This document shows positions 1 to 15,426 of a stretch of 32,492 nucleotides of DNA, piece after piece. A program made the position numbers and the translations under genes. The stretch is from positions 1 through 32,492 of IMG/VR virus record IMGVR_UViG_2744054675_000007; one strand, 5' to 3'. Position 1 is the stretch's first letter, and each line of letters begins with the position of its first letter. The stretch is from a virus. Its lineage: Duplodnaviria > Heunggongvirae > Uroviricota > Caudoviricetes. The notes under the pieces are model-generated. The model had not been told where the DNA came from. It saw only the letters and a program-made list of their open reading frames with translations, and ran no database searches.

Positions 1-1254
1 ATGCTGGAACAAATGGGCATTGCCGCGAAGCAAGCCTCGTATAAATTAGCGCAACTCTCCAGCCGCGAAAAAAATCGTGTGCTGGAAAAAATCGCCGATG
101 AACTGGAAGCACAAAGCGAAAGTATCCTCAACGCTAACGCGCAGGATGTTGCAGACGCGTGTGCCAATGGCCTTAGCGAAGCGATGCTTGACCGTCTGGC
201 ACTGACGCCCGCACGGCTGAAAGGCATTGCCGACGATGTGCGCCAGGTGTGCAATCTCGCCGATCCGGTGGGGCAGGTAATCGATGGCGGCGTACTGGAC
301 AGCGGCCTGCGTCTTGAGCGTCGTCGCGTACCGCTGGGGGTGATTGGCGTGATTTATGAAGCGCGCCCGAACGTGACGGTTGATGTTGCTTCCCTGTGCC
401 TGAAAACCGGTAACGCGGTGATCCTGCGCGGCGGCAAAGAAACCTGTCGCACTAACGCTGCAACGGTAGCGGTGATTCAGGACGCCCTGAAATCCTGCGG
501 CTTACCGGCGGGTGCCGTGCAGGCAATTGATAATCCTGACCGTGCGCTGGTCAGTGAAATGCTGCGTATGGATAAATACATCGACATGCTGATCCCGCGC
601 GGTGGGGCTGGTTTGCATAAACTGTGCCGCGAGCAGTCGACAATCCCGGTGATCACAGGCGGTATAGGCGTATGCCATATTTACGTTGATGAAAGCGCAG
701 AGATCGCTGAAGCATTAAAAGTGATCGTCAACGCGAAAACTCAGCGACCGAGCACATGTAATACGGTAGAAACGTTGCTGGTAAATAAAAACATCGCAGA
801 TAGCTTCCTGCCCGCATTAAGCAAACAAATGGCGGAAAGCGGCGTGACGTTACACGCTGATGCAGCCGCGCTGGCGCAGTTGCAGGCAGGCCCCGCGAAG
901 GTGGTGGCTGTTAAAGCCGAAGAGTATGACGATGAGTTTCTGTCATTAGATTTGAACGTCAAAATCGTTAGCGATCTGGATGACGCCATTGCCCATATTC
1001 GTGAACACGGCACGCAACACTCCGATGCGATCCTGACCCGCGATATGCGCAACGCCCAGCGTTTTGTTAACGAAGTGGATTCCTCCGCTGTTTACGTTAA
1101 CGCCTCTACGCGTTTTACCGACGGCGGCCAGTTTGGTCTGGGGGCGGAAGTTGCGGTAAGCACACAAAAACTCCACGCGCGCGGCCCAATGGGGCTGGAA
1201 GCTCTGACCACTTACAAGTGGATCGGCATTGGTGATTACACCATTCGTGCGTAA
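1..1254 (+). CDS. proA: gamma-glutamyl phosphate reductase, complete 417 aa
   Basis: Full-length ORF whose translation matches enterobacterial ProA as I recall it along its whole length; sits immediately upstream of the thrW-type tRNA as in E. coli. Confidence 0.93.
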
Positions 1255-1368
1255 ATAAAACCGGGTGATGCAAAAGTAGCCATTTGATTCACAAGGCCAT
1301 TGACGCATCGCCCGGTTAGTTTTAACCTTGTCCACCGTGATTCACGTTCGTGAACATGTTCTTTCAGG

Positions 1369-1444
1369 GCCGATATAGCTCAGTTGGTAGAGCAGCGCAT
1401 TCGTAATGCGAAGGTCGTAGGTTCGACTCCTATTATCGGCACCA
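1369..1444 (+). tRNA. thrW: tRNA-Thr, anticodon CGT (thrW-type); its 3' end is the likely prophage attachment core
   Basis: 76 nt GCCGATATAGCTCAGTTGGTAGAGCAGCGCATTCGTAATGCGAAGGTCGTAGGTTCGACTCCTATTATCGGCACCA; folds as a cloverleaf with anticodon loop TTCGTAA and a 3' CCA. Confidence 0.85.
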
Positions 1445-1458
1445 TTTAAATCAATGAG

Positions 1459-2619
1459 TTACCTCACATTTAAGTAAACTACGTTCTCCTCTTGTGCCGT
1501 ATTTGTGCCATTGCGACTTATAATCGCATCGATTTTGCTCGCGTGCTCGGTGAGATGCCCGGCTGAAAGGTGAGCGTATCTTTGAACCATTTCGAGAGTT
1601 TCCCATCCACCCATCTCTTTAAGTGCAAGAAGAGAGACTCCGGACTGAACCAGCCAGCTTGCCCAGGTGTGTCTCAGGTCATGGAATCGGAAGTTGCTAA
1701 TGCCTGCCCGCTTTAACGCTCCCTTCCATGCTTTGTTGCTATCGGTTCTCATCTTCCTTACCGCAGCTGTTTTTGTTCCGTCGCTTCGGTAGGCAGGTTT
1801 GGTGTGGACAAATACCCATCTCTTATGGAGCCCCTGCTGTTTTCTTAATATCTGGCATGCGGTTTCGTTAAGAGGAACTCCGATCGCATTGCCAGCTTTT
1901 GTTTCATCAGGGTGCATCCATGCCATTTTCTTATCCAGATCGACCTGTGACCACTCAAGGTCTGTAACGTTGGAACGGCGAAGGCCTGTCGTGATTGCAA
2001 ACATGACCACAGGGAAGAAATGAGGAGCAATTTCTGCAAACAGGCGCTTCGATTCCTCCTCTGTAAGCCATCTAATGCGTCCATTCTTAACGCGTGGTGT
2101 TGATATTTTGGGAGCCCTGTCAAGCCATCCCCATTCAACAGCCATATTGAGAATAGCGCGAAGTATTGCCAGATGTCGCGTCTTCGTTCCTTTGCTTGCC
2201 AGCTTTGGTTTATACTCCGGCACTGGCTTGCCAATCCGCAAACACCTGTCCCGGCTCATTTCCCAGTTCAGGCGATGGCGGCGGTTTTCCATCCCGTCTA
2301 CCGCCTCCATTATTTTTTCTGTTGTTATGTCAGAGAGAATGGTTTCTCTGAAGTGCAACATCCAGAACGATATAATGCTCTTGTCATCATCAATGGACTT
2401 CTTATCCGATTTCTCACGCAGCCACCGTATGCAGGCTTCCTTGAATAGCTTTTTCGGCGATTCCCCGAGATTTTTTACTCTCCACGCTTCTGCTTTCAGA
2501 CGATCGTGAAGTTCTTGCGCTTGCCTTTTGTCCGATGTTTCAAGAGAGCGCCTAACTCTTGATCCATCTGGCGCGACGAAATCGCAGTGCCACGTGCCAC
2601 CGCGTAGTTTGATTGACAT
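1459..2619 (-). CDS. int: phage integrase, tyrosine recombinase
   Basis: 386 aa ORF; C-terminal catalytic region with the R...HDLRHTWASW...RYAHL (H-x-x-R ... Y) tyrosine recombinase signature; AGGAGG RBS upstream of the ATG at 2619; adjacent to the tRNA. Confidence 0.9.
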   Translation of the reverse strand: MSIKLRGGTWHCDFVAPDGSRVRRSLETSDKRQAQELHDRLKAEAWRVKNLGESPKKLFKEACIRWLREKSDKKSIDDDKSIISFWMLHFRETILSDITTEKIMEAVDGMENRRHRLNWEMSRDRCLRIGKPVPEYKPKLASKGTKTRHLAILRAILNMAVEWGWLDRAPKISTPRVKNGRIRWLTEEESKRLFAEIAPHFFPVVMFAITTGLRRSNVTDLEWSQVDLDKKMAWMHPDETKAGNAIGVPLNETACQILRKQQGLHKRWVFVHTKPAYRSDGTKTAAVRKMRTDSNKAWKGALKRAGISNFRFHDLRHTWASWLVQSGVSLLALKEMGGWETLEMVQRYAHLSAGHLTEHASKIDAIISRNGTNTAQEENVVYLNVR

Positions 2620-2843
2620 GCTTTAACCTCCTGCACATCAACCGCATTCACCGCGCTATTGTGTCCCACAGACTTAAGCGCCGCAATGCAGTCTGACTTG
2701 CAAATGCGATATGGACTTTTAGGTTTATCTGGATTTATCTTTGCGGCCTGAAGTCGTCCACTTCGTATCCACTGTGTGATAGTGCCTTTGTCTACCTTCA
2801 GATACGACGCAGCTTCTTCACGAGTGAAGATTTCTTCTTCCAC
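2496..2843 (-). CDS. xis: excisionase-like DNA-binding protein, about 115 aa, GTG start
   Basis: HTH-like segment EEAASYLKVDKGTITQWIRSGRL; GGAGA RBS 6 nt upstream of GTG at 2843; 3' end overlaps the int start as is common for xis-int pairs. The track ORF 2496..2915 has an unsupported N-terminal extension. Confidence 0.55.
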   Translation of the reverse strand: MEEEIFTREEAASYLKVDKGTITQWIRSGRLQAAKINPDKPKSPYRICKSDCIAALKSVGHNSAVNAVDVQEVKACQSNYAVARGTAISSRQMDQELGALLKHRTKGKRKNFTIV

Positions 2844-2942
2844 CTGGAATCTCCATTTATTGGATTGACATGATTGCTGTAGGTCTGGATATCTTGAGAA
2901 ATGAACAGGCCTCATCGAGTGTGAGGCTGTGTTATTTCATGG

Positions 2943-3287
2943 TTAGTCCTTGCGTAGCTCGCTGATTCTTCTGTAAGTCTCTGGCGCTTTGTTCCCGTGT
3001 ATCTTCATTTCAGACTTCAACAGAGCAACGAGGGAATCCCATTCGTTGAGGATGCCTTTGAATGCCGGAACGCGCTTTGCAACCTTGTTGAATGAATCTC
3101 TGATTTCTGGAATCTGCTCAACAAGTGCAACGCATCGCCGGAAGTCTGCTACGTCATATGGAGCGTCGAAGTGATGACCATAGATATTCTTTTTCAGTCC
3201 ACATGCGATTGAGGCAAGAGTTGCGCTACTGATGCCGACATCGCCTGTCGATTGCCATTTCAAAACCTTCATAGCTAAATCTGACAT
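2943..3287 (-). CDS. hypothetical protein, 114 aa
   Basis: ORF with GGAGA RBS before the ATG at 3287 (MSDLAMKVLK...); a terminator hairpin lies immediately upstream. Confidence 0.55.
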   Translation of the reverse strand: MSDLAMKVLKWQSTGDVGISSATLASIACGLKKNIYGHHFDAPYDVADFRRCVALVEQIPEIRDSFNKVAKRVPAFKGILNEWDSLVALLKSEMKIHGNKAPETYRRISELRKD

Positions 3288-3295
3288 TTCTTGTC

Positions 3296-3322
3296 TCCAA
3301 TAAAAAACCGCCATCAGGCGGC
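3296..3322 (-). terminator. rho-independent terminator-like hairpin directly followed by the RBS of the 2943..3287 gene
   Basis: Minus-strand GCCGCC-TGAT-GGCGG followed by TTTTTTATT, then GGAGACAAGAA-ATG. Confidence 0.5.
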
Positions 3323-3353
3323 TTGGTGTTCTTTCAGTTCTATTGGTTACGTC

Positions 3354-3665
3354 TTATTCGATGCGCACTCCTGGTATTTCGCCTTTTGATATTGCTAAGT
3401 CATAAATTTGCGCGGCACTATACCCATCTCGCATCCATGAATCTAAGGCGCGAACAGCCTGGCTACGCTTTTTATCTTCTCTCTCATTTTTGATATCAAC
3501 GAGGACATCAACGCAATTAAGGCAAATGTGGATTTTGTCCTTACATTCGATCATGGCGGCTTTGCCATGATTTCCGCCACACAGTGAGCATAAATCTTCA
3601 GGGTCTGGCTGGTATTGCTGTAATGTTAGAGGGTTGAATGTTGAACAGACCATAATCATCTCCAT
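3354..3665 (-). CDS. hypothetical protein with putative zinc-ribbon (CxxC...CxxC)
   Basis: 103 aa ORF containing CSLCGG ... CLNC cysteine pairs; sits in the int-proximal accessory region. Confidence 0.55.
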   Translation of the reverse strand: MEMIMVCSTFNPLTLQQYQPDPEDLCSLCGGNHGKAAMIECKDKIHICLNCVDVLVDIKNEREDKKRSQAVRALDSWMRDGYSAAQIYDLAISKGEIPGVRIE

Positions 3666-3724
3666 AAAACAAAACCCGCCATAGCGAGTTCAGATAAAAG
3701 AAATCCCCGCGAGTGCGAGGATTG

Positions 3725-4009
3725 TTATTCATTGCCGATATTCACCTTTATCGCGAACACCTTTACCGGTTTATCACCGAAGTGCGGATGTGTGATTGTC
3801 TTGATTTCATATCCGTCATACGGAACATCAATTCTGCGGCTGGAATCGTCGCGCTTCGGATATCCCTTTGTGATAATCAGTCGGTCATACTCCCGGAACA
3901 TAATTCGCTTATTCCAGTAGTCATTACACAGGCGATACTCTTCCGTTTTATCTCCGCGAATCATGGCATCGAAGTATTCACCTTTAACGGCAAGTTGCAG
4001 ATTAGCCAC
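3725..4009 (-). CDS. hypothetical protein, possible ASCH/PUA-like fold, GTG start
   Basis: GGAGG RBS followed by GTG at 4009 (VANLQLAVKGEYFDAMIRGDKTEEYRL...); start overlaps the stop of the upstream gene; domain call is from the motif pattern only. Confidence 0.45.
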   Translation of the reverse strand: MANLQLAVKGEYFDAMIRGDKTEEYRLCNDYWNKRIMFREYDRLIITKGYPKRDDSSRRIDVPYDGYEIKTITHPHFGDKPVKVFAIKVNIGNE

Positions 4010-4721
4010 GGTTAACCTCCTGAGGCGGTTCTGGTAGAGGCATCCAGTGTGTGACATTGCTAATCAGACCATATTCATTAGTTTGAGGATGGTTGCCGTT
4101 ATCGTCTCCGTATTTAAGACTCTCCATAAAGCCATAATGCCTATCACCATTAACGCTCACAAAGCCGTAATAAGCAGGTATAACGCCGATCTCACACGTA
4201 ACCAGTAAAGGAAAACTAGTTCTCCAATTTAGCTCGCCGATTACAGGCATCTGCTCACTACAGCTTATCCAACCATCCGGAGTTACCGGAGAGTTGCCAG
4301 CCTTACGCATGGCGGCGCGGCAGGCTTCATCAACCATAGCTTCTACGTTTTCGAGAAGTACGTAACTGTACTGCTGCCCGCTAACCCATTCTTTTCTGCG
4401 AGGTAATGCGCGTGGGTCCGCTACAATGGATCGCAAACGTTCCAGAACAGCTGGCACATCCGGCGCTGGCGGGGCGGCGTATACTTCAATTGTCCCATTA
4501 TCAATAGGCCACTCCCCATCCTTGATGTAGTCACTTGTGCCGTCAACTTGCTGTTCTGCAATGTGGAATGCACCTATTGGTTTTGCTTCCAGCGATGCCA
4601 GCGCAATTCGTGCCAGTTCTTTAAGATTTTCGCTATATGGTGAAGTATTATCACGGTTGATTACGTGATTAGCTGTATCTATGAGAACTTGCTTTTGTTC
4701 TTCTCTGTTCATAGTGGTCAT
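4002..4721 (-). CDS. hypothetical phage protein with C-terminal DUF551-like region
   Basis: AAGGAGAG RBS before ATG at 4721 (MTTMNREEQ...); C-terminal W/G/Y-rich segment resembles DUF551 as I recall it; the track ORF extends further upstream without RBS support. Confidence 0.5.
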   Translation of the reverse strand: MTTMNREEQKQVLIDTANHVINRDNTSPYSENLKELARIALASLEAKPIGAFHIAEQQVDGTSDYIKDGEWPIDNGTIEVYAAPPAPDVPAVLERLRSIVADPRALPRRKEWVSGQQYSYVLLENVEAMVDEACRAAMRKAGNSPVTPDGWISCSEQMPVIGELNWRTSFPLLVTCEIGVIPAYYGFVSVNGDRHYGFMESLKYGDDNGNHPQTNEYGLISNVTHWMPLPEPPQEVNRG

Positions 4722-4812
4722 CTCACTCTCCTTTGATGCGAATGCCAGGGGCGCGTGGCACATTAACTTCCACGATGCGCACAGTTGGTTTGTACATCTC
4801 AATCGCTGTCAG

Positions 4813-5364
4813 CTAGTCAGCGCCGGTCATATGCTTTTCTGCATCGCCATTAGTCCATTGAACCGGCACACCAATAGCTTTCATCGCAATTTCTATTTCC
4901 CCGGCAATGGCGCTTTTCCCGCAACCAGTAAAACCAGAGACAACGACAAGAACTTCGCCTTTGGCTGGTTTTATTTCCCGCGCTTCCAGTTCTGCTATGC
5001 GCTTTTTTGCTGCTTCCAGCTTCTTGTAAAGAGCATCCCAACTTGTCGAGTTATCCATAACCAGCTTTGTAACCCGCTCTTCGCGTGATTTGTAATACTC
5101 CAGCTCATCCAGCAGTGCCAGCGCAACATTTGGATTAAAAGCAGCAATAAATTCAGCGTTTGCATAAGCCTGAACATCTGTTTCAACCAGGCAGTTAACA
5201 TGACATTCCGCAATCACACCACCGGGTTCTCCTTTCCATTTTTGACAAACAAAAACTCCTGTTAAATTGCCGTGCTGGTTAACAGATGTATGCCCTACGA
5301 TGTAGCTTCCTTTAGTTGCTTTCTCTGCCTTTTCACGCAGTGCCTGATAGTCAATTTCGCTCAC
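4813..5364 (-). CDS. hypothetical early protein, possibly Ead/Ea22-like, GTG start
   Basis: AAGGAGG RBS before GTG at 5364 (VSEIDYQALREKAEK...); the longer track ORF (to 5556) would overlap lar in another frame. Confidence 0.45.
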   Translation of the reverse strand: MSEIDYQALREKAEKATKGSYIVGHTSVNQHGNLTGVFVCQKWKGEPGGVIAECHVNCLVETDVQAYANAEFIAAFNPNVALALLDELEYYKSREERVTKLVMDNSTSWDALYKKLEAAKKRIAELEAREIKPAKGEVLVVVSGFTGCGKSAIAGEIEIAMKAIGVPVQWTNGDAEKHMTGAD

Positions 5365-5584
5365 TGTTTGCCTCCTTTGCTCGCTGATTCCACTCTGCTC
5401 TAACCTCTGAATAAAAAATCGCACAGTCATTTCCAGGCGCTGCATATTTGCTACCAGATTGAGCGCGACACGTACCGCATCGAACGAAATAGAATCGACC
5501 GCCAGAGCCATATTCAGGGTGATCTGCTTCACTGGCAACGTGCGCTGCGCCGCCACAGAATGGACATGGTAGTAGGTTGCTCAT
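5351..5584 (-). CDS. lar: Lar-family restriction alleviation protein (anti-restriction)
   Basis: [12 protein letters not shown]... N-terminus with the CPFCGG plus later CGTC cysteine pattern typical of the Lar family; ATG overlaps the stop of the upstream gene in an ATGA. Confidence 0.65.
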   Translation of the reverse strand: MSNLLPCPFCGGAAHVASEADHPEYGSGGRFYFVRCGTCRAQSGSKYAAPGNDCAIFYSEVRAEWNQRAKEANSERN

Positions 5585-6198
5585 GAATGTACTCCCTTGC
5601 GAAGTTGGTCTGCACAATGCAGCAGGGCATCCGTCGCTTCTTTCACCGTAACGATGTCGCCATCGTCCAGCCCGACAACCGTCGCGTCCTTAACGAACAC
5701 CGAGCAAAGGTCATTAAACGCCTTAGCCCGCACTTCAGCCAGGAAGGCGTCAACCTGCGGAGTTTGCACTGTGATGCTGTCACGCAGGATGAAGTAAGCG
5801 TTAAGCATTCCGGTTTCAGGCATCTCCTCTGCATTAAATGCATCGATTGCAGCATCCATTACAGGGCCAAGTGGTTGAGGGTGTGCGCTACGGATAGCAT
5901 CACATTCAGCTATGATAGATTTGATTTTATCTACCAGGTCAGATGGTGACACGTCGTCAGCTGACCGATTAAACCCAAGCACCTCCCGAACTGCGCAAGA
6001 TTCCGACATTCTTTGGTCGGCTTGCCCTGCTGACATTGAGTAGCGAGCATTCTCCGCCGCCAGCGCCGAAATCTTAGCCTCCGCTTCAGCAAATTTACGC
6101 ACCAGATATTCAGCGTTTGTTTCGTTAACCTTTAAATCTCGTGGAATGCATTTACCTTTCAGAAAACCATCCATCTCAATTAGTGACATTTGTTTCAT
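5581..6198 (-). CDS. hypothetical protein, 205 aa
   Basis: Long ORF; ATGA start/stop overlap with the upstream small ORF and with lar downstream indicates a translationally coupled operon. Confidence 0.6.
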
Positions 6199-6359
6199 TT
6201 TTTCCCACTCCGCAACATCGCATTCAGATATTTGTTGTCATTAACAGAACCGAAACTATTTCTTTTAAGCAATTCCTCTCTCGATGGCATTGGCTTTACG
6301 CGTTGGCGAATAATCATTTCTGCAGGAAGAATGCCGGGGTTGTATGCAAGTCCTCTCAT
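6195..6359 (-). CDS. small hypothetical protein, 54 aa, below the ORF-track size cut-off
   Basis: [57 protein letters not shown]; ATGA overlaps at both ends with flanking genes. Confidence 0.35.
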
Positions 6360-6637
6360 GATTTACTCTCCACGAACTGGTCAATAGCCATGCTAAGTGA
6401 CACACCTAAAGTCTCGATATGCTGCTGAATATCCTGTAGCGTCTGCGCCTGAGATAACAGGATTTCACGGTTGCATAACTCTTTAACCAGATGCTCAAAC
6501 TTGCTGTAATAACCGATACGGCTTAGTGTTTCTTTCCCTGCATTATCACCTTCTTTAATAATTCCTCTTTCACTAAGAATCAGGTCGTGTTTTGTTCCGG
6601 TAATAACGTATTTGCCTAGGTCGATGTTTAGCTTCAT
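6356..6637 (-). CDS. hypothetical protein, 93 aa
   Basis: ORF with GGAG RBS upstream of ATG at 6637; part of the coupled leftward operon. Confidence 0.55.
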
Positions 6638-6653
6638 TGTTAATTACTCCATG

Positions 6654-6968
6654 TTAATTTATTCGTATGCCTTCTCTTTCTTCATCGAGTTTTTTTAGCT
6701 TGTATCGCATAGCTCTTACTGAATAAATTGAGCGGCAGGTTGCAATTGCTATTTCTTCTGCGGAGAACTTACCGAAAAGTGATACTTCGGCTCTTGTCCA
6801 GCGTCTTCCACGAAGTCGGCTAACAATGTCAGCGCCAATCCTTGTTGCTTTCGCCATTACTGCTTTTTCAGTCCTTTCCAGTTTTTCAGCGATAACTTCA
6901 ACTGGCATTGTTGCCGCTACTTCGCGCAAGAAATCGACTTCCCATTTCTCCCAAGGAGTCTTTTTCAT
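6654..6968 (-). CDS. hypothetical protein, 104 aa, two W-containing helix-rich repeats (possible HTH/Myb-like)
   Basis: ORF immediately downstream of the Gp157-like gene in the same orientation. Confidence 0.5.
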   Translation of the reverse strand: MKKTPWEKWEVDFLREVAATMPVEVIAEKLERTEKAVMAKATRIGADIVSRLRGRRWTRAEVSLFGKFSAEEIAIATCRSIYSVRAMRYKLKKLDEEREGIRIN

Positions 6969-6979
6969 AGGCGATACCG

Positions 6980-7468
6980 TTATTTGATAAGAAGTGAAGG
7001 TTTCCCAACTTTGAGTTGAGCGCCGGGGATATTTATTCCTGCTTTTAGTTGGTGTTTGATTGCCAGTTTGTCGGCTTTAATTGTCGTTTCAAACTCAACG
7101 TATTCAGGAGGAAGGGCGCTTGAGTCGATGATTTCTACAGTTTCTGACGGTTTGCGGATTGTTACCTGGTGAATACCTGCTCGAATCTTTTTCTTGCCAA
7201 CCATTTCAAGCGATGACGCTATATATGATTTGATGCTGTCAATCTTATTTTGAATTACTTCGGCTCGCTCATTTAGTGACTTTGCCTCTTCCTTGAGGCG
7301 CTCAGCATAACCAGATTCATTTTTGATGACGGAAAGAAGTTGCTCTATTTTATCGGTAAATTCTCCTTCCATGCCTTCTATTGTGTCAGCAATCATCTCT
7401 GGCTCTAAATCTGAATCCATCAATTTTGCGTATTCATTGGCAATTTCATATAGTTTGCTCACTGGCAA
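6980..7468 (-). CDS. Gp157-family protein, a common RecT/Erf companion in siphophage recombination modules
   Basis: 162 aa ORF beginning MPVSKLYEIANEYAKL...; acidic coiled-coil protein directly downstream of recT. Confidence 0.6.
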   Translation of the reverse strand: MPVSKLYEIANEYAKLMDSDLEPEMIADTIEGMEGEFTDKIEQLLSVIKNESGYAERLKEEAKSLNERAEVIQNKIDSIKSYIASSLEMVGKKKIRAGIHQVTIRKPSETVEIIDSSALPPEYVEFETTIKADKLAIKHQLKAGINIPGAQLKVGKPSLLIK

Positions 7469-8357
7469 CCTCCAGTTTTGCTTTGCATTCTGCGTAAATG
7501 GCTTGTACGTTCTGCTGCAATTTCATTCCAGATGTCAGGCGATATGCTTCTGCAAAATATCGCTTCAAATCATCCATGTTTTCTGCCTGAGCCATTTCAT
7601 CACAAAGAAGTTGTGCTTTTTCCATTATTTCCTGCTGGCGTTTCCGTTCATCTTCGCGGATATCTTCCTCTGATTTGTGCGGCATAACTGGTTCAGTCCA
7701 CACACCTTCTTCTTCGTTTAGTACGTGAATAGCACTATCAAGACGTGATGCCTTAGGCCAATACTTGCTTGCACGCTTTACGACCGTCTTTCGCGCCATC
7801 TCATTCCAGTGATTTACCCATGGTCCTTTATCGCTGAATGCTGCCTTGCTTGTTTTCCTTACAGCCTCAATTTCAGCCAGACTCATCTCTTCCGTTAGAT
7901 AATCACCTGCTGGCGTCTTAACTGTGCAGTAAACGCCAACGATATCACCACGATCACCGAAGGCGTTGTATTTATGGGTTGGTGCTTTATCAAGCCCGTT
8001 TGACTCATAGGTATCGTTAGCATGAACAAGTTTTGCCTGACCCCATGAGATAACACCAGACTCCATTGCAATATGGAGCAATCCCATATAACTGATATCA
8101 AGGCAAACCATGCCGTCGCGCGGAACTAGATAAGCAAGTTTGCTGGCCGGGTTTAAGGTGATGCCGATCGCCGCAACATTGATGATGGCGTTCTGTGCGC
8201 TGGTTGGATTTGCCAGTGCCGTTTTAGCCAGGTAATCGTTTTTCTGGAAATACTGAATTGCAAACTGGCTTTCCTTAGCCCATGTCACCGTCTGTTCAGT
8301 CAATGCTCCGCAGAATAACTGCTCCTGCTGTTTAACGAATTCAACGATATTGCTCAT
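7446..8357 (-). CDS. recT: RecT-family single-strand annealing recombinase
   Basis: 303 aa; segment GPWVNHWNEMARKTVVKRASKYWP matches my recollection of E. coli RecT (GPWVTHWEEMAKKTAIRRLFKYLP). Confidence 0.85.
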   Translation of the reverse strand: MSNIVEFVKQQEQLFCGALTEQTVTWAKESQFAIQYFQKNDYLAKTALANPTSAQNAIINVAAIGITLNPASKLAYLVPRDGMVCLDISYMGLLHIAMESGVISWGQAKLVHANDTYESNGLDKAPTHKYNAFGDRGDIVGVYCTVKTPAGDYLTEEMSLAEIEAVRKTSKAAFSDKGPWVNHWNEMARKTVVKRASKYWPKASRLDSAIHVLNEEEGVWTEPVMPHKSEEDIREDERKRQQEIMEKAQLLCDEMAQAENMDDLKRYFAEAYRLTSGMKLQQNVQAIYAECKAKLEVASEQTI

Positions 8358-8665
8358 GCAGCTTCTCCAAAAATGTGTCTGCGTTTGAATATTGCGAAGG
8401 CATATTCAGCCTTAACTCTTTCGGTTATTGCATCCCAGAACCATTCAGCGGCTTTTTCCTGATAGTTACAGTCATCATCTTCCAGCCAGTCGATAGCGTC
8501 CTTAGTGTGTTCATCTGGTTTATATGAGCGAAGCATTTCGCTTATTGGGTCGCAACGTTTGCAGAGGAGATCAACTTCACTGTTGATTCGCTCGTAATCT
8601 TCATCAGTAAAACTTGCGATTATTTGCGATATTTCACGCTTATCATTCAGAGTCAGAATCATCAT
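8354..8665 (-). CDS. hypothetical protein, 103 aa
   Basis: ORF whose stop overlaps the recT start (ATGA-type coupling). Confidence 0.5.
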   Translation of the reverse strand: MMILTLNDKREISQIIASFTDEDYERINSEVDLLCKRCDPISEMLRSYKPDEHTKDAIDWLEDDDCNYQEKAAEWFWDAITERVKAEYAFAIFKRRHIFGEAA

Positions 8666-8746
8666 CTTTCTCCTGTTCTTTGTGCTGATTGAGCATTTTG
8701 TTCATCTGACGAATGAATTCTTCGTCTGACCAGTTATCTGTAAAAC

Positions 8747-8917
8747 TCATGGGCGGCCTTGTTGTTTCAAAATATCCCAAAGCTTTTCGAGCAAACTTTT
8801 CATTCTTGGTTGTTTAAAGTCTGCTCCGGTTAAAATATTTTTTCGTGAATGCTGTACCGATAAAATCGGGTTGAAAGGGCGAACCGATGCCGCCCCTGCA
8901 ATAGCGAACTGTTGCAT
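8747..8917 (-). CDS. small hypothetical protein, 56 aa, below the ORF-track cut-off
   Basis: AAGGAG RBS 6 nt upstream of ATG at 8917 (MQQFAIAGAASVRPFNPILSV...); stop overlaps the next small ORF start (ATGA). Confidence 0.4.
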   Translation of the reverse strand: MQQFAIAGAASVRPFNPILSVQHSRKNILTGADFKQPRMKSLLEKLWDILKQQGRP

Positions 8918-9007
8918 AGGATGCTCCTTCTGTTTGATTGCATAACGAAAACGCCTCGAGTGAAGCGTTATTGGTATGCGGTAAAGCCGCCAACAGGCGG
9001 CTATTTG

Positions 9008-9133
9008 CTATTGATTCTTTTCAAGAACATCAATGATGTCGTCCGGGTTGTCTCCGTTGTCTTCACAAAATGCTTCGAATTCAGCCCATTTCGCGCTGAT
9101 AAAATCAATTACTCTAATTAATTCGTATTCCAT
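9008..9133 (-). CDS. small acidic hypothetical protein, 41 aa
   Basis: GGAGAAAAAT RBS before ATG at 9133 (MEYELIRVIDFISAKWAEFEAFCEDNGDNPDDIIDVLEKNQ); preceded by a terminator-like hairpin. Confidence 0.4.
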   Translation of the reverse strand: MEYELIRVIDFISAKWAEFEAFCEDNGDNPDDIIDVLEKNQ

Positions 9134-9144
9134 ATTTTTCTCCA

Positions 9145-9176
9145 GACCAAAAGAATGCCGCCCATATAGAGCGGCA
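9145..9176 (-). terminator. terminator-like hairpin plus T-run immediately upstream of the 9008..9133 gene RBS
   Basis: Minus-strand GCCGC-TCTATATGG-GCGGC followed by ATTCTTTTGG, then GGAGAAAAATATG. Confidence 0.4.
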
Positions 9177-9321
9177 AGACTATCAAGGAATGATTTCCAA
9201 TAATCAGAACAAGTCGGCTCCTGTTTAGTTACGAGCGACATTGCTCCGTGTATTCACTCGTTGGAATGAATACACAGCGCAGTGTTTATTCTGTTGTTTG
9301 TGCCAAAAATAAAGGCCACTA

Positions 9322-9573
9322 TCAGGCAGCCTTGTTGTAAATGTTGCAGGTATCAAGTAAGTAATTAGATGGAGCGACATAAATTATGAATTCAGCGTTT
9401 GTCGGGTCCATCTCCATCTCTTGGCCTATTGCCATTCTTGCGTCAGTGTCATCAGCGGCGAAGCATAAAACAGCCCACGCACCCATTGTTTTAAAAAGAA
9501 CTGCAATTGGCTGTGGTTTTACTGAATTTGCGTTAGCGCGAAAATCATAAATCGCACTTTCATGAAATTCCAT
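9322..9573 (-). CDS. hypothetical early protein, 83 aa
   Basis: ORF with GAGGTG RBS before the ATG at 9573; directly downstream of N. Confidence 0.5.
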   Translation of the reverse strand: MEFHESAIYDFRANANSVKPQPIAVLFKTMGAWAVLCFAADDTDARMAIGQEMEMDPTNAEFIIYVAPSNYLLDTCNIYNKAA

Positions 9574-9581
9574 ATCTCACC

Positions 9582-9887
9582 TCAATCGTAATAAGCTGGA
9601 ATTGATTTTCCGCGTTGCTTCTGGCGGCCTGAGCATGTCACACCCATTTCACTGCGTGGCTTGCTGTAGTAAATACGATTCTGTTTACGATCGACTTCTT
9701 CTGCTTTCTTGCAGCGAAGGCTTCCGAGTGAAGCTGCTTTGTCTGCTCTGACGCAACCAGAGAGCTTTAGCGCAATCTTTCGCGCCAGTCGCTGTTCTTG
9801 CATTGCCTGTTCACGTTGAGCCTGTCTGCGTGCTCTGCGGCGATTTCTGGCGTTATCGTCAGCCAGATATGTAATGACTACTGTCAT
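9582..9887 (-). CDS. N: antitermination protein N (lambda-like)
   Basis: Arg-rich motif NARNRRRARRQAQREQ near the N-terminus and a C-terminus (YYSKPRSEMGVTCSGRQKQRGKSIP) matching my recollection of lambda N (WYSKPGERGITCSGRQKIKGKSIP); GGAGG RBS; downstream of nutL. Confidence 0.75.
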   Translation of the reverse strand: MTVVITYLADDNARNRRRARRQAQREQAMQEQRLARKIALKLSGCVRADKAASLGSLRCKKAEEVDRKQNRIYYSKPRSEMGVTCSGRQKQRGKSIPAYYD

Positions 9888-10286
9888 GTTGACCTCCGAT
9901 GAAACAACTTTGGAATTTTTTTATTACAAAGTGGTTTCCTTCCCCGCCAATTAGACGGGGATGGAAGAGCATTTATGAGCCTTCATGGACTCTGCTCGAT
10001 CAGTTCTATTTAATTAATCTCTCAACTGAATGTAAGTATTCACATAAATCCTCCTACCTCTTGTGCAGCTTTCTTGAATATGGTGGCGGCTGCATAACGC
10101 CTATGGAATTGACTTTGGCGATTGGATGGCCGGTGCTGAACTCCGGCTTACTGGTTAGAGCGCCCGCACTACCAGTGACGCTGTCTTGAGGCGCAGATTG
10201 GTTACTGCTTGCCATGAGCGCTGTTTATACATTGGTCGAGCATCAGCCTGCTCATTCATCCAATCCCAAAGCCAACTACTCTTTGG

Positions 10287-10328
10287 TTCCCGCATTTCGG
10301 CGGGACAATCCCATCAATGTTAAAGAGC
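10287..10328 (-). promoter_or_regulatory. putative nutL (boxA-like GCTCTTTAACA plus boxB-like hairpin)
   Basis: Minus-strand GCTCTTTAACA followed by hairpin GTCCCGCCGAAATGCGGGAA; the same boxA and near-identical hairpin recur on the plus strand after cro. Confidence 0.5.
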
Positions 10329-10369
10329 CTGCCAATCTGTTCCGTTTGGCTACCAGCGTCCTGCTGATG

Positions 10370-10410
10370 GCTTAAATTTAAGATCTCTTTAATTAATGGT
10401 CAAGAGTATT
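10370..10410 (-). promoter_or_regulatory. putative OL/PL (leftward early promoter overlapping a P22-type operator)
   Basis: Minus-strand TTGACC (-35), 17 bp, TAAATT (-10) overlapping inverted-repeat ATTTAAGATCTCTTTAAT that resembles the operators next to cro. Confidence 0.4.
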
Positions 10411-10477
10411 TTTGAAGAAAACTTAAATTTTTTTTCGTAACTTAAGTTTGGCTTTGATTTTTAAAGGAAATAAAAAA

Positions 10478-10496
10478 AAAGGGGCGAATGCCCCCT
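10478..10496 (-). terminator. rho-independent terminator directly after the c2 stop codon
   Basis: Minus-strand GGGGGCATTCGCCCC followed by a run of nine T. Confidence 0.55.
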
Positions 10497-11146
10497 TATG
10501 GAAGGTTTGCTAGTTTTGCATCGACAACTACGCCGATGATTTTGCAGTTTCCGTTGATCTCGATCATCGGATATTGTGGGTTAAGTGGTTTTAGAAACTT
10601 CCTGCCTGCATCAATAACTAACTTCTTGAAAGTTGCCTCGTTTTCTCCTTCGAGCTTTGCAACTACCAGTTTCCCGTTACGCGGCTCTACTTCAGGATCG
10701 ACGAGTATTATCATTCCTTCAGGGATACTGAGACCGGCCGGAGCCGTCATTGAGTCTCCCTTCACGTCCAACCAAAACGAATCTTCTGAACAGTCTACGG
10801 TTGTATCGTACCAGTTATCTATTGCACGCTTATGATATGGTTCCACAGCTTCCATCCAGCATCCTGCGCTCACCCAGCTAATCAGAGGGTATGACCCTCT
10901 TGGATCATGCCTACTGTGATAGGCAATGTTTGAAAGACTTTCCTCTCCTTTCATCAGATAGTCAGGGGAACACTTCAACGCATTAGCCAGGGCGAGAAGA
11001 TTCTCTCCATTTGGCTCTGTCTCAGAGCGTTCCCACTGAGATATGGCAACATTAGACACGCCGACCATCTTTCCAAGTGCGGCCTGCCTGATCTTGAGTT
11101 CTTTTCTCCGAGCGCGAATGCGCTCTCCCATCAATTGAGTTTTCAT
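10496..11146 (-). CDS. c2: CI-type prophage repressor (HTH plus S24 LexA-like autopeptidase domain), P22 C2-like
   Basis: 216 aa; N-terminal HTH (IRQAALGKMVGVSNVAISQWERSE); C-terminal S24 motifs (GDSM Ser and downstream KK); matches my recollection of P22 C2; divergent from cro. Confidence 0.9.
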   Translation of the reverse strand: MKTQLMGERIRARRKELKIRQAALGKMVGVSNVAISQWERSETEPNGENLLALANALKCSPDYLMKGEESLSNIAYHSRHDPRGSYPLISWVSAGCWMEAVEPYHKRAIDNWYDTTVDCSEDSFWLDVKGDSMTAPAGLSIPEGMIILVDPEVEPRNGKLVVAKLEGENEATFKKLVIDAGRKFLKPLNPQYPMIEINGNCKIIGVVVDAKLANLP

Positions 11147-11226
11147 AGTTAAGACATCTTAAATAAACTTGACTTAAGATTCCTTTAGTGGATAATTTAA
11201 GTGTTCTTTAATTTCGGAGCGAGTCT
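11147..11226 (+). promoter_or_regulatory. OR operator/promoter region (PR rightward; PRM presumably leftward)
   Basis: Three TTAAG...CTTAA-type inverted repeats (AGTTAAGACATCTTAAAT, ACTTAAGATTCC..., ATTTAAGTGTTCTTTAAT); TTGACT at 11169..11174 and GATAAT at 11191..11196; GGAG RBS before cro. Confidence 0.55.
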
Positions 11227-11412
11227 ATGTACAAGAAAGATGTTATCGACCACTTCGGAACCCAGCGTGCTGTAGCTAAAGCGTTAGGCATTAGCGACGC
11301 AGCAGTCTCTCAGTGGAAGGAAGTCATCCCAGAGAAAGACGCCTATCGACTGGAAGTCGTTACAGCTGGCGCCCTGAAGTATCAAGAAAGCGCTTACCGC
11401 AAAGCGGCATAA
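11227..11412 (+). CDS. cro: Cro-type repressor (P22 Cro-like)
   Basis: 61 aa with HTH QRAVAKALGISDAAVSQW; divergent from c2 across the operator region; matches my recollection of P22 Cro. Confidence 0.9.
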   Translation: MYKKDVIDHFGTQRAVAKALGISDAAVSQWKEVIPEKDAYRLEVVTAGALKYQESAYRKAA

Positions 11413-11419
11413 GCAAATT

Positions 11420-11463
11420 GCTCTTTAACAGTCATGGTCCTCATTCCCGCCGAAATGCGGGAA
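11420..11463 (+). promoter_or_regulatory. putative nutR (boxA-like plus boxB-like hairpin)
   Basis: GCTCTTTAACA followed by hairpin TTCCCGCCGAAATGCGGGAA between cro and cII; mirror copy of the nutL element. Confidence 0.5.
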
Positions 11464-11520
11464 TACAACGCGCATAAGTTGATGCGCATAACTTCTTATT
11501 TGTTAAGGAAATACTTACAT

Positions 11521-11814
11521 ATGGTTCTTGCAAACAAACGCAACGAGGCTCTACGAATCGAGAGTGCGTTGCTTAACAAAATCGCAATGCTTGGAACTGA
11601 GAAGACAGCGGAAGCTGTGGGAGTTGATAAGTCGCAGATCAGCAGGTGGAAGAGGGATTGGATTCCAAAGTTCTCAATGCTGCTTGCTGTTCTTGAATGG
11701 GGTGTCGTTGACGACGACATGGCTCGATTGGCACGACAAGTTGCTTCGATTCTCACCAATAAAAAACGCCCGGCGGCAACCGAGCGTTCTGAACAAATAC
11801 AAATGGAATTTTAA
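11521..11814 (+). CDS. cII: CII-type transcriptional activator (lambda cII-like)
   Basis: 97 aa from the ATG after TAAGGAAATACTTACAT; near-identical to lambda CII as I recall it (MV.ANKRNEALRIESALLNKIAMLGTEKTAEAVGVDKSQISRWKRDWIPKF...). Confidence 0.85.
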   Translation: MVLANKRNEALRIESALLNKIAMLGTEKTAEAVGVDKSQISRWKRDWIPKFSMLLAVLEWGVVDDDMARLARQVASILTNKKRPAATERSEQIQMEF

Positions 11815-11836
11815 TAACATCCAACGAGGTAATTAT

Positions 11837-12109
11837 ATGCGAAACAAAGGCTTTAATCCACCTGATACACACAAAGAAGCTAAGCGTTTGCGCTTCCTTC
11901 GTTCCATTGATGAAAGAACTCAAATCTCTTTTGTGAAAGTTGCCAGAACTGAGCTTCTGAAGGCTGAGGCGAGGGCGTTGCTCCCGTCCCTACCAAAAGA
12001 GGAGGGATATACGTTCATTCCAAACGCATTTCTGGAAAAGCTGCTCAAAGAAGACATATCCGTAAGTCAGTTTAACGATGTTCTTAAGGTCTTTCGTCAA
12101 GGCAGGTAG
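11837..12109 (+). CDS. hypothetical protein, 90 aa
   Basis: GAGG RBS before ATG at 11837 (MRNKGFNPPDTHKEAKRLRFL...); the longer track ORF from 11528 overlaps cII out of frame and is rejected. Confidence 0.5.
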   Translation: MRNKGFNPPDTHKEAKRLRFLRSIDERTQISFVKVARTELLKAEARALLPSLPKEEGYTFIPNAFLEKLLKEDISVSQFNDVLKVFRQGR

Positions 12110-12111
12110 TT

Positions 12112-13059
12112 ATGAGCAATACAGCAAAAATCTACGATTTCAGCGCCGCACACGAGCGCAGGAGCAACAGGATGGAGAACCAGAAAACTGGTTACATTCC
12201 GTTGTACCGGAGCATTCTGAAACAGTCATGGGCGAAAGATGTTTATCTTCGCACCCTGTGGGAAAACCTTCTCCTGAATGCCGCCAGAAAGCCATACAAA
12301 GCGAATTTCAAAGGTCATGAATGGCATCTGCAACCCGGTCAACTGGTTGTGACAGCAGCTGATTTAGGTCTTCAGTTATGCGACAGGCATGGCAAGCCAG
12401 CAAGCCGTGATCAGGTTGAGCGGATGCTTCAGGTTTTTGTGAAAGAGGGGATGGTCTCCATTGATGGAGAGAAGCAAAAAGGTCGTGTGATCACCATCAC
12501 AAATTACCATGAATATGCTCAAAAAATGGACAATTCACCCGCACATGAAGCCGCACAAACAACCGCACATGACGTCGCACATGATGAAGCCAGTAATGGC
12601 GCGGCTTTCAGCGTACATGCCGCACATGAAAGCGCACATGAAGCCGCACAAACAACCGCACATCATGAACAAGAAGGTATTAACAAGAATATAAATAATA
12701 CCCCCCTACCCCCCAATGGGGGAGGCGATGGGCAGGTTAAACCTGAACGTCGCAAGGCAGAACGAATCGACTACGAATCCTTCCTGAACGCCTACAACAC
12801 CGAAGTCGGTGACAGACTTCCACACGCTGTTGCGGTCAACGAGAAACGAAAACGCCGCCTGAAGAAAATCATCCCGCAACTGAAAACGCCAAACGTGGAC
12901 GGTTTCAGAGCGTATGTCAGGGCGTTTGTGCATCAGGCCAAGCCGTTTTACTTCGGAGACAACGACACGGGCTGGACGGCTGATTTTGATTACCTGCTGA
13001 GAGAAGACTCGTTAACGGGAGTTCGGGAAGGGAAGTTTGCAGACAGGGGGATTGCATGA
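12112..13059 (+). CDS. replication initiator, lambda O-like, with internal origin iterons
   Basis: N-terminus [10 protein letters not shown] resembles lambda O (MTNTAKILNF); internal repeated [10 protein letters not shown] peptides encoded by DNA iterons; stop overlaps the helicase start (ATGA). Confidence 0.75.
12536..12720. repeat. origin-like iteron array plus adjacent AT-rich stretch inside the O-like gene
   Basis: At least six GCACATGA-type octamers, including two ~32 bp direct repeats (CGCACATGAAGCCGCACAAACAACCGCACAT), followed by AT-rich TATTAACAAGAATATAAATAATA. Confidence 0.55.
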
Positions 13060-14432
13060 GACAGGATATCGAAGCGAGCGTTATCGGTGGCCTGCTGATT
13101 GGTGGATTAACTCCAACCGCCAGTGACGTTCTGGCAACGCTGGAGCCGGAAGCGTTTTCAATTCCGCTCTACCGGAAAGCCTTCGAGGTTATTCGCAAGC
13201 AGGCGAGAAACAGAAACCTAATCGATGCGCTGATGGTTGCCGAGGCGTGCGGAGAGGAGCATTTCACGTCAATCCTGATGACCAGCAAAAACTGCCCGAG
13301 TGCCGCAAACCTGAAGGGATATGCCGGAATGGTCGCGGATAACTATCACCGCCGTCTGGTGCTGGAAATCATGGATGAAATGCGTGAACCAATCCAAAGC
13401 GGAACCATCGACGCATCGAGTCAGGCGATGGATGAACTTGTAAAGCGTCTTTCAGCCATCAGAAAGCCCCGTGACGAGGTTAAACCTGTACGGTTAGGGG
13501 AAATCATCACTGACTACACTGACACGCTTGACAGGCGTCTGAGGAACGGAGAAGAGTCAGATACCCTGAAGACCGGAATCGACGAACTTGACGCCATCAC
13601 CGGAGGGATGAACGCGGAAGACCTTGTGATAATCGCCGCTCGTCCTGGTATGGGGAAAACCGAACTGGCGCTGAAGATTGCCGAAGGCGTTGCAAGCCGC
13701 GTTATTCCTGGTTCTGACGTCCGGCGCGGGGTATTGATTTTCTCAATGGAAATGAGCGCATTGCAGATTGCAGAGCGAAGCATTGCCAACGCCGGGAGGA
13801 TGTCGGTTAGCGTACTGCGAAATCCTGCATCGATGGATGACGAAGGCTGGGCGCGTGTTGCTAACGGCATGAGTCAGCTTGCAGATTTGGATGTATGGGT
13901 AGTCGATGCCTCGCGGTTATCGGTCGAAGAAATTCGCTCAATCGCAGAGCGGCACAAACAGGAAAATCCAAACCTGTCACTCATCATGGCGGATTATCTT
14001 GGCCTGATTGAGAAGCCGAAAGCAGACCGCAACGACCTCGCAATTGCTCACATCTCCGGAAGCCTGAAGGCGATGGCGAAAGACCTGAAAACGCCTGTTA
14101 TCTCCCTGAGTCAGCTTTCGCGCGATGTTGAGAAGCGACCAAACAAACGCCCGACAAACGCAGATTTGCGTGATTCAGGAAGCATTGAACAGGACGCAGA
14201 CTCAATCATCATGCTCTATCGGGAAGCGGTATATGACGAGAACAGTAGCGCCGCGCCATTTGCTGAAATCATCGTGACGAAAAACCGTTTTGGCTCACTT
14301 GGTACGGTTTACCAGCGGTTCTGCAACGGACACTTTGTTGCATGTGATCAGGATGAAGCCAGACAGATTTGCACAGCATCAAATGCACCTGCTGCGCGTG
14401 GCAGACGATATGCACAAGGGGCGGACGTATGA
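13056..14432 (+). CDS. DnaB-like replicative DNA helicase
   Basis: 458 aa; DnaB N-terminal domain and Walker A GMGKT in a RecA-like C-terminal domain; position after the O-like gene. Confidence 0.9.
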
Positions 14433-14458
14433 CCATCTACATCACTGAGCTTGTAACA

Positions 14459-14489
14459 GGCCTGCTGGTAATCGCAGGCCTTTTTATTT
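14459..14489 (+). terminator. rho-independent terminator (tR2 analogue) between replication genes and the nin region
   Basis: GGCCTGC-TGGTAATC-GCAGGCC followed by TTTTTATTT. Confidence 0.55.
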
Positions 14490-14504
14490 GGGGGAGAGTA
14501 AATC

Positions 14505-14711
14505 GTGGTTGAGTTGATTTTCTCTGCATTGAGGCTTCTCGGTGCTATGTGGATAGTGGCGACGTTCATTGTGGTTGCTGGCTGTTTTGTCCGGTTGGTA
14601 GGCGAAGGTAAAGACCTGGTTGGTGTGCTTTTCGGTAGCATTTTCCTGTGGGTGATTATCGGTGTTATGCCTGTCGCTGTAGCAAAAATGGCGTGGCGTT
14701 TTGTGAGTTGA
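14505..14711 (+). CDS. small hydrophobic membrane protein, 68 aa, GTG start
   Basis: GGGGAGAG RBS then GTG; sequence is almost entirely hydrophobic with two predicted transmembrane segments. Confidence 0.45.
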   Translation: MVELIFSALRLLGAMWIVATFIVVAGCFVRLVGEGKDLVGVLFGSIFLWVIIGVMPVAVAKMAWRFVS

Positions 14712-14728
14712 ACTGAGGATAAGTATCG

Positions 14729-15013
14729 ATGGACGAATCAAGAAAGAAGTTTGAGGAATACGTTGCCAAAAAATTGAAATTACCATTCGAGATGATAACC
14801 GAGGCAAGAAATGGTGATAGGTACTTCGCATTTTCAAGCATGGATATTCGTCACTCCTTAAATGAGTGGTGGGCTTTATGGCAGGCATCGCGAGCAGCTA
14901 TCGAGATTGAGCTTCCTGAAAGCTTTACCATGCATAGTGGGCGAACCCCATATCTGTATGTAAGCGAGGTGCAGAGCGCCATCCGCGCTGCTGGAGTCAA
15001 AGTGAAGGAGTAA
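14729..15013 (+). CDS. hypothetical protein, 94 aa
   Basis: ORF between the small membrane protein and ninB, same orientation. Confidence 0.55.
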   Translation: MDESRKKFEEYVAKKLKLPFEMITEARNGDRYFAFSSMDIRHSLNEWWALWQASRAAIEIELPESFTMHSGRTPYLYVSEVQSAIRAAGVKVKE

Positions 15014-15015
15014 CG

Positions 15016-15426
15016 ATGAAGCAAACAATATTCCTCCGAACTAAGCAACAACAGCAAGCCGCAATCAACGCCATCCTCGCAACACCACTCGATAAAGACA
15101 AGCCAGTCACCATCCGCATTACTGACTACAAGCGCAATCTTGACCAGAACGCAAAATTTCACGCGATGCTGGCGGATATCGCTCGTCAGGTTCAATGGTG
15201 CGGAAAATGGTTAAAACCAGAACAATGGAAGGTTTTGTTGATTAGCGGTCATGCAGTGGCGACAAAGCAGGAAGCTGATGTTTTGCCCGGGCTTGAAGGC
15301 GAATACGTCAACATTCGCGAAAGTAGCGCGCAGATGAGTGTGAAGCGTATGGCAAGTCTTATCGAGTACACAACAGCCTGGGCTATTGGTCAGGGTGTCA
15401 GATTTACCGACAGGAGGTACGAATGA
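15016..15426 (+). CDS. ninB: NinB/Orf-family recombination protein
   Basis: 136 aa; [27 protein letters not shown]... resembles lambda NinB (RSLDQNRKLWACLGDVSRQVEWHGRWL...). Confidence 0.8.

Follow-up and report, generated by a model that had tools for sequence, protein, structure and literature searches.

Operons that carry terminators and are antiterminated by N, and boundary sequences at mosaic joints, have both long been described in lambdoid phages. HK022 passes its terminators via put RNA and not N. The names tL2b-d are said to come from Luk and Szybalski in 1983. In lambda, tL3 is placed directly after exo in a plasmid description (PMC8402550); the lambda hairpin at 31287..31265 fits this position, which puts the terminators in the order tL3, tL4, t'I along the operon. 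In lambda, the Hfq-dependent small RNA (sRNA) LPR1/PreS has its 3' end at tL2a, as demonstrated by northern blot and RIL-seq (10.1101/2024.10.31.621285). PreS is ~88 nt long with a processed form of ~68 nt, is made in the lytic cycle only and activates dnaN translation (10.1101/2024.10.31.621285). 'Short conserved boundary sequences' have been cited for lambdoid mosaicism (PMC3029335), and a portion of orf55 is kept near xis in 933W (PMC8614690). Here we analyse a stretch of 32,492 nt, hereafter the window (IMG/VR virus record IMGVR_UViG_2744054675_000007, positions 1 to 32,492), in which three elements, designated A, B and C, each place a hairpin and a T-run before the ribosome-binding site (RBS) and start codon of a small gene. 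All three lie on the minus strand inside the early leftward (pL) operon, downstream of the N gene and nutL. We conclude that they are very probably intrinsic (Rho-independent) terminators placed along the pL operon of a lambda-like prophage at thrW and would be read through by N; B would also form the 3' end of an sRNA, and the elements would serve as linkers for the exchange of open reading frames (ORFs).

Three terminator-like elements precede small genes of the pL operon

Element A (3299..3324, minus strand) consists of the stem AAGCCGCCTGATGGCGGTTT at 3324..3305 with the loop TGAT and a T-run at 3307..3299, and has a folding energy of -12.4 kcal/mol. It is followed by GGAG at 3298..3295 and by the ATG (3287..3285) of a 114-aa gene, a homologue of HK022_32, that runs to the stop at 2943. 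Element B (9149..9176, minus) has a stem at 9176..9156 and the tail TTCTTTT at 9155..9149 (-14.1 kcal/mol), followed by GGAG at 9143..9140 and the ATG (9133..9131) of a 41-aa gene that ends at 9008 (minus; phrog_15754, E 5e-15). Element C is a tandem pair. Its first hairpin (3694..3723, minus; stem 3723..3702, -12.5 kcal/mol) begins 1 nt after the stop codon of the upstream gene (3727..3725). The second (stem 3691..3672, T-run 3674..3666, -8.7 kcal/mol) is followed by GGAG at 3663..3660, the whole spanning 3660..3691 (minus), and by a 99-aa gene of the 933W L0063 / Sf6 gene 19 type (3354..3653, minus; phrog_3680, E 4e-68), which occupies the slot of lambda orf55. A preliminary description made from the sequence had noted a hairpin and T-run followed by GGAGA and the ATG of the gene at 2943..3287, a similar element before the 41-aa gene at 9133 and a weaker one before a gene at 3354..3665. 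The first two are present as described (A over 3324..3285 and B over 9176..9131). The third also exists (C over 3723..3651), but the term 'weaker' does not suit two tandem hairpins that each have a T-run. The start of its gene is most likely the ATG at 3653 and not 3665, since the match to phrog_3680 starts only at residue 5; GGAG then lies 6 nt upstream.

The hairpins have the features expected of intrinsic terminators. The stems are GC-rich, lie on the pL-sense strand and are 8-9 bp long, with energies from -8.7 to -14.1 kcal/mol. The U-tracts are TTTTTTATT in A and TCTTTTAT and TTTTGTTTTAT in C, while that of B (TTCTTTT) is interrupted and weaker. Context-fold z-scores were -4.3 for A (in a context of 74 nt), -3.5 for C and -2.1 for B. 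The spacing from T-run to RBS is only 0-10 nt in A, B and C, leaving no room for a promoter, and no sigma-70-like site was found between the T-run and the start codon upstream of 3287, 3653 or 9133. At Rfam gathering and E-value thresholds, no family was matched within 2800..10500.

The hairpins exceed chance expectation: 35 terminator-like sites were found in 1..16000, compared to 16.7 +/- 4.7 in shuffled sequences. Since shuffles also yield 16.7 such sites per 16 kb, hairpins that arose by chance and have no function had to be weighed. However, all sense-strand sites in the pL operon (7/7 within 1459..9887) fall into the 583 nt that are non-coding, which make up 6.9% of the operon (p ~8e-9, assuming uniform placement), and each true non-coding gap of at least 60 nt in the operon holds at least one site. 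The gap 8666..8746 was considered as a terminator-free intergenic exception and rejected, as a small ORF covers it. Fold z-scores reach values as low as -4.3 to -4.5, and A, B and C are each conserved across hundreds of phage records, in which the flanks vary and stems are replaced compensatorily. Conservation and placement effectively refute chance, to which we assign a negligible probability.

Elements A and C match lambda t'I and HK022 tL4

Positions 3341..3298 of the window are 97.7% identical over 44 nt to lambda 29102..29145, with the same stem, loop, T-run and orientation. The P22 record L06296 labels the same sequence a terminator 'identical to the t'I sequence of bacteriophage lambda', and the RBS of eaC follows directly. 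On this alignment, A is an orthologue of lambda t'I; it is also positioned, like t'I, at the exo-xis region's distal end. In lambda, the TGA stop codon of orf55 lies inside the hairpin loop, and the cII site of pI (TTGC-N6-TTGC) and xis come at once after the hairpin. In the window, by contrast, another gene takes the place of orf55, the stem begins 30 nt after the upstream stop codon, and only a remnant of the orf55 3' end is left, with an 11-bp deletion (3353..3313). No pI-type cII site (TTGC-N6-TTGC) was found near 2800..3300, where GGAG and the 114-aa gene follow A instead. In the P22 record NC_002371, the same hairpin is used in the opposite direction as the terminator of the aI RNA; no paI-like promoter was found here. 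In the HK620 and Sf6 records, pI and a 'boundary sequence' lie directly beside the t'I homologue. The segment 3298..3341 (minus) is a conserved boundary block common to lambda, P22, HK022, HK620, Sf6 and 933W-type phages, and homology breaks at 3298 in the comparison with lambda, at 3281 with P22 and at 3299 with the 933W type.

The first hairpin of C differs from HK022 tL4 by a single mismatch in 29 nt, located at a loop base (window 3723..3695; X51962 2417..2445). It is, to judge from this match, the orthologue of HK022 tL4, placed after the gene in the ASCH/ea8.5 slot. HK022 and the window also have in common the second hairpin of the tandem and the TTTTATGGAGATGAT ribosome-binding region. 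Lambda has the same tandem pair between ea8.5 and orf55 (29356..29305, first stem 29356..29335), with the same TTTTATGGAGATGAT leader. The gene that follows is orf55 in HK022 and lambda, whereas it is of the 933W L0063 type in the window. Unlike HK022, the window prophage has N and nut sites.

The 99-aa protein encoded after C carries a C-x2-C ... C-x2-C pattern, and its residues 19-65 weakly match the zinc-binding domain at the N terminus of ClpX (NCBIfam E 0.0017), a hint that its function might be linked to ClpX. Behind the lysis genes, a terminator (19585..19604, plus strand) has the stem CCTCGCATTCGCGGGG, which equals the 16-mer of the HK022 tL4 stem and is one base off window 3720..3705.

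Element B lies at the end of a PreS-like sRNA region

The window segment 9338..9184 and lambda 34103..33950 form a 155-nt block that is 96% identical. The B hairpin aligns column for column with lambda 33952..33931 (tL2a), but the stem is different: in place of the lambda tL2a sequence (GCCCUCCAGUGUGAGGGC followed by U6), another stem and tail occupy the same aligned position. The stem of B, GCCGCUCUAUAUGGGCGGC, is of the P22/L type, which is found upstream of gene 17 and is annotated as a terminator in the phage L record MW013502. The presence of two alternative stems at one aligned position points to selection on structure rather than on sequence. Because a terminator is present but is not that of lambda, 9247..9149 (minus) was classified, by sequence comparison with lambda, as a variant homologue of PreS/LPR1.

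From the primers published for lambda PreS, its 5' end lies at GGAGCAATGTCGCTCGTAACT and its seed is TGTTCTGATTATTGGAA (10.1101/2024.10.31.621285). The first 56 of 56 nt are identical between the window and lambda PreS, from GGAGCAATG through the seed TGTTCTGATTATTGGAA. Both sequences lie at the same site after the ral-like gene, and the 17-18-nt seed, as delimited by the authors' seed deletion, is identical in the window. Lambda PreS likewise has a GC hairpin and U-tail directly before the variable ea10 slot. The 3' part of the window variant differs, with an extra 11-14 nt able to pair with the seed, then the other terminator stem and an interrupted U-tail; in the predicted fold, the seed pairs with this extra 3' segment. 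The published study (10.1101/2024.10.31.621285) counted sequences as conserved from 92% identity upwards and with no more than 3 gaps, and the window variant would fall outside this set. By homology, B would be the 3' end of the upstream PreS-like sRNA gene and not a part of the 41-aa gene.

We also considered whether the PreS-like region encodes the N terminus of a 77-aa ORF (9241..9008), and rejected this because its ATG is ATA in the P22/L types, the lengths of the indels are no multiples of three and the stem substitutions are compensatory. The record of phage vB_EcoP-611R6 (L011, 1220..1453) annotates a 77-aa coding sequence that spans the PreS-like sRNA with its terminator and extends into the 41-aa gene; it is most likely an over-extended gene call.

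Alignment of relatives revealed a further hairpin, H2, directly 5' of the PreS-like 5' end (9248..9275, minus). The H2 region (9248..9290) sits between the conserved GAATAAGCAC on its 5' side and GAGCAATRTCGCTCGTAAC on its 3' side, and in the relatives four completely different perfect stems occupy this one position (alignment A4). H2 stem cells were paired in 98.6% of cases, compared to 80% after shuffling and 31-50% after sliding. In a second helix, H3, the G.U/A.U/G.C changes seen are valid on the pL-sense strand only. H2 probably marks a processing site that creates the 5' end of the sRNA. A motif near H2, CGCTCGTAAC, is faintly boxA-like. Across 135 related sequences, the PreS locus combines four H2 stems, four seed-region types and two terminators, and 14 combinations were seen; that of the window, a lambda seed with a P22-type terminator, occurs in 8 of the 135, which are a biased sample.

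The experimentally shown end of an Hfq-dependent sRNA at lambda tL2a, the counterpart of B, suggests another role for A and C: their hairpins may be mainly modules for RNA 3' ends, stability or Hfq binding (sRNAs from 3' untranslated regions, or mRNA protection) and not attenuators. Consistent with this, ~40 nt upstream of the t'I hairpin are conserved even where they are non-coding, as in P22 and the window. However, that block is the coding 3' end of orf55 in lambda, the 11-bp deletion in the window block speaks against tight constraint, and the only phage sRNAs in the lambda RIL-seq data are LPR1, LPR2 and 6S, with none at tL4 or t'I (10.1101/2024.10.31.621285). We consider such a role unlikely to be the main one for A and C.

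The terminators behave as resident linkers between exchanged genes

The preliminary description had proposed a recurring cassette in front of the small genes. When the junctions were aligned pairwise, A against B (z = 0.3) and B against C (z = 1.1) scored no better than shuffles. A and B have nothing in common beyond TGGAGA, and the similarity of A to the second hairpin of C (z = 4) is confined to the 3' arm, the T-run and GGAG. A single repeated cassette was rejected on account of the shuffle-level alignments of A with B and B with C. The architecture recurs, and it coincides with mosaic joints, but the sequence does not recur. None of the three junctions is a copy of another; each is a conserved linker, and across hundreds of lambdoid phages its flanking genes have been exchanged, as in the known 'boundary sequence' pattern.

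To compare the flanks, IMG/VR contigs were retrieved by exact terminator patterns and their flanks were clustered, so that the linker is fixed by design and the contig counts show that reassortment occurs, not how frequent it is. Among the matches listed, the t'I 21-mer (122 usable matches) was found with at least six related downstream and at least four upstream contexts, freely combined. The downstream contexts were lambda pI-xis (53), the HK620/Sf6 type (40), the window gene type (21), P22 eaC (2) and others; the upstream contexts were orf55 (91), P22 eaG (22), the window type (5) and others. In these contigs, homology is lost immediately past the T-run or within the first few codons of the gene. 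The tL4 pair was preceded, among the matches listed, by nine upstream genes, each with its stop codon just before the first stem, and followed by three downstream genes that start at a common ATG. In one contig (L147; IMGVR_UViG_2563366928_000012, ~11168..11300), the tL4 tandem is joined directly to a gene of the 2943..3287 type at the common start codon, and the junction lacks orf55 and t'I.

The slot after B gave a similar picture. It holds ea10 in lambda, gene 17 in P22/L and other genes elsewhere, and is empty in HK542. Among the matches listed for slot B there were two stem alleles; behind them came ea10, gene 17, the 41-aa gene, four or more further ORFs, or no gene at all, which brings the slot after the PreS terminator to at least seven cargo gene types, or an empty form; gene 17 was found behind both stem alleles. 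One terminator stands before many genes, and one gene stands after different terminators; this marks the terminators as resident linkers that are not borne by the cargo. On this evidence, terminator and RBS stay in place as linkers while the ORFs are swapped. Short conserved blocks with unrelated flanks on both sides, as described for boundary sequences, were thus found at loci that had been retrieved via the block itself.

These comparisons bear on the proposal that the small genes are cargo with built-in attenuators, in which each gene would have come as a mobile unit with its own upstream terminator and RBS. Slot B has several features that would suit such units: hairpins lie on both sides of it, with only one in the empty form of HK542; the 41-aa cargo has its own hairpin after it (9002..8985) and a GC content of 0.37, compared to 0.46 for the operon; and several different slot B cargos share TTTTTTGAYGGAGGAWATATG. 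Against this, the same terminator precedes many unrelated genes, and both gene 17 and the HK022_32-type gene in L147 stand behind different terminators. Such a spread of cargo over several hairpin types, as found for gene 17, refutes the mobile unit. The breaks in homology lie past the T-run or at the start codon, which leaves the terminator in the backbone; the sequences of A and B are unrelated, and the PreS sRNA upstream includes terminator B. Built-in attenuators are therefore largely unsupported, and we regard their arrival with the cargo as improbable.

Two hairpins follow the 41-aa gene (8942..9002, minus; z = -4.5). The first (9002..8985, AGCCGCCTGTTGGCGG) is identical to the t'I stem at 15 of 16 positions over 9002..8987, where 0.03 would be expected by chance. 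The near-identical stems AGCCGCCTGWTGGCGG at 8985..9002 and 3308..3323 (minus) thus lie 5.7 kb apart in one operon, and recombination between them would delete cIII through the t'I region. The second hairpin (8969..8950) and its T-run are common with lambda 33512..33493, upstream of cIII.

The prophage carries an N-like gene and nut sites

The window is an Escherichia coli prophage at thrW: proA (1..1254) and the tRNA-Thr gene thrW (1369..1444) are directly followed by the lambdoid prophage. The pL operon ends in the genes for excisionase (xis, 2496..2843, minus) and integrase (1459..2619, minus), and a series of small early genes on the minus strand lies between xis and the N-like gene. A LexA-type repressor is encoded at 10496..11146 (minus), and cro and cII are encoded on the plus strand.

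The first gene of pL encodes an N-like antitermination protein (9582..9887, minus; phrog_271, E 8e-36). In the relative MB53, PGAP gives the name 'transcriptional antitermination N peptide'; the match to Pfam N_peptide is weak and below the Pfam cut-off. A nutL site with boxA GCTCTTTAAC and boxB CCGCCGAAATGCGG (10328..10290, minus) lies between a pL-like promoter (10403..10375, minus) and N, and nutR, with identical boxA and boxB, lies after cro (11420..11460, plus). The boxA and boxB pair occurs exactly twice, with 0 expected by chance, and the two sites flank the immunity region. This layout is the lambda arrangement. The suggestion of the preliminary description that the small genes are reached only by N-modified transcription agrees well with the N-like gene, with nutL and nutR and with the lack of a promoter-like site after the T-runs.

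The small genes could also be classical morons, autonomous units that would be transcribed in the lysogen from promoters of their own. They are short accessory genes in variable slots, and the 41-aa gene has both the low GC content and the downstream hairpin that would fit. However, own promoters were not found: the T-run abuts the RBS, and there is no sigma-70-like site upstream of 3287, 3653 or 9133. Furthermore, lambda PreS, from the same region, is not expressed in lysogens (10.1101/2024.10.31.621285). Autonomous expression of this kind appears very improbable, and transcription from pL with antitermination by N is preferred.

Other features of the prophage

Two weaker hairpins occur in the operon. 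One, with a T-run, overlaps the stop codon of the ral-like gene (9312..9333, minus; z = -0.6) and is conserved in lambda; the other, with a poor T-tail, lies between the 114-aa gene and xis (2909..2927, minus; z = -4.2, -7.6 kcal/mol). The order of terminator, T-run, GGAG-type site and start codon is also seen on the plus strand, at 14458..14507 in the rightward early operon and at 28173..28212 in the late operon, which argues for a general feature of the antiterminated operons of this phage; TTTTTATTGGGAGAAGACAATG at 28191 (plus) is similar to TTTTTTATTGGAGACAAGAAATG of element A. A lambda oop-type terminator, AGAACGCTCGGTTGCCGCCGGGCGTTTT, is found at 11763..11790 (minus), and a cII site (TTGC-N6-TTGC) lies in the pRE position at 11530..11543 (minus); no such site was found near xis or int.

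Two phage tRNA genes (Asn-GTT and Thr-TGT; 17899..18054, plus) lie a short way downstream of a strong promoter-like site (17814..17843), and the tRNA pair and this site resemble the arrangement in Stx-type phages. In the late region, an unexpected place for this motif, 20326..20388 (plus) matches the Rfam int-alpA RNA (42 bits, gathering threshold 35.8).

Discussion

The anatomy of the three elements, their orthology to known terminators, the N and nut components and the reassortment of flanking genes are observed here, and termination, read-through and sRNA production in this prophage are expected from homology. Upon induction, RNA polymerase starting from pL would cross nutL and N would be made. 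The N-modified polymerase would then pass all hairpins down to xis and int, while unmodified polymerase would halt at them, so that the distal genes to xis and int would be delayed-early. As the T-run abuts the next RBS and there is no internal promoter, anatomy and homology suggest that expression of the small genes downstream depends entirely on read-through transcripts. In these mRNAs the hairpin would lie just 5' of an independent, strong RBS. B would additionally provide the 3' end and U-tail of the PreS-like sRNA (9247..9149). The hairpins may act by partial termination or as a block to spurious transcription that is not antiterminated (PMC8022706). In evolution, the blocks of terminator and RBS would be the short conserved linkers at which lambdoid phages swap whole ORFs.

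Four points weigh against this interpretation. The U-tail of B (UUCUUUU) is interrupted, so B may terminate and bind Hfq less well than its lambda counterpart. Lambda t'I precedes the cII-dependent pI and no such site follows A, so the regulatory context differs. At 9333 and 2927, the hairpin is weak or has no good T-run. Finally, the reassortment counts come from IMG/VR loci found by exact terminator patterns, in which the linker is fixed by design. Even so, we hold the interpretation of A, B and C as terminators of the pL operon to be highly likely.

A more far-reaching reading joins several of these observations. The linkers may be preferred portals of homologous recombination for swaps of single ORFs with start-codon precision, and the PreS locus may be a three-part mosaic, with H2 as the processing signal for the sRNA 5' end; the window's combination of a lambda seed with a seed-sequestering P22-type 3' module might then alter target regulation. 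Taken as a whole, this reading is tentative and rather doubtful. For annotation, we propose to label the elements as pL-operon terminators of the t'I, tL4 and tL2a types, and 9247..9149 as a PreS-like sRNA and not, as in one phage record, as the 5' part of a 77-aa ORF.

Two further known systems have features in common with the elements. Like morons, the window genes are small variable accessory genes in fixed slots, and the 41-aa gene is followed by a hairpin. Unlike morons, they have no promoter of their own, and the terminator, which is part of the backbone, precedes the gene. The other likeness is to the boundary sequences of HK620 and Sf6, which are also short conserved non-coding blocks between unrelated, reassorted flanking genes. 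The blocks in the window consist specifically of terminator hairpin, T-run and RBS, whereas Sf6 bsq2 lies immediately downstream of the t'I homologue and not on it. The elements are nothing new in kind, being orthologues of t'I, tL4 and tL2a/PreS that were named and annotated between 1989 and 2024. To these descriptions the window adds the PreS variant, the reassortment of PreS stems, seeds and terminators, and at least seven cargo genes in the slot that follows.

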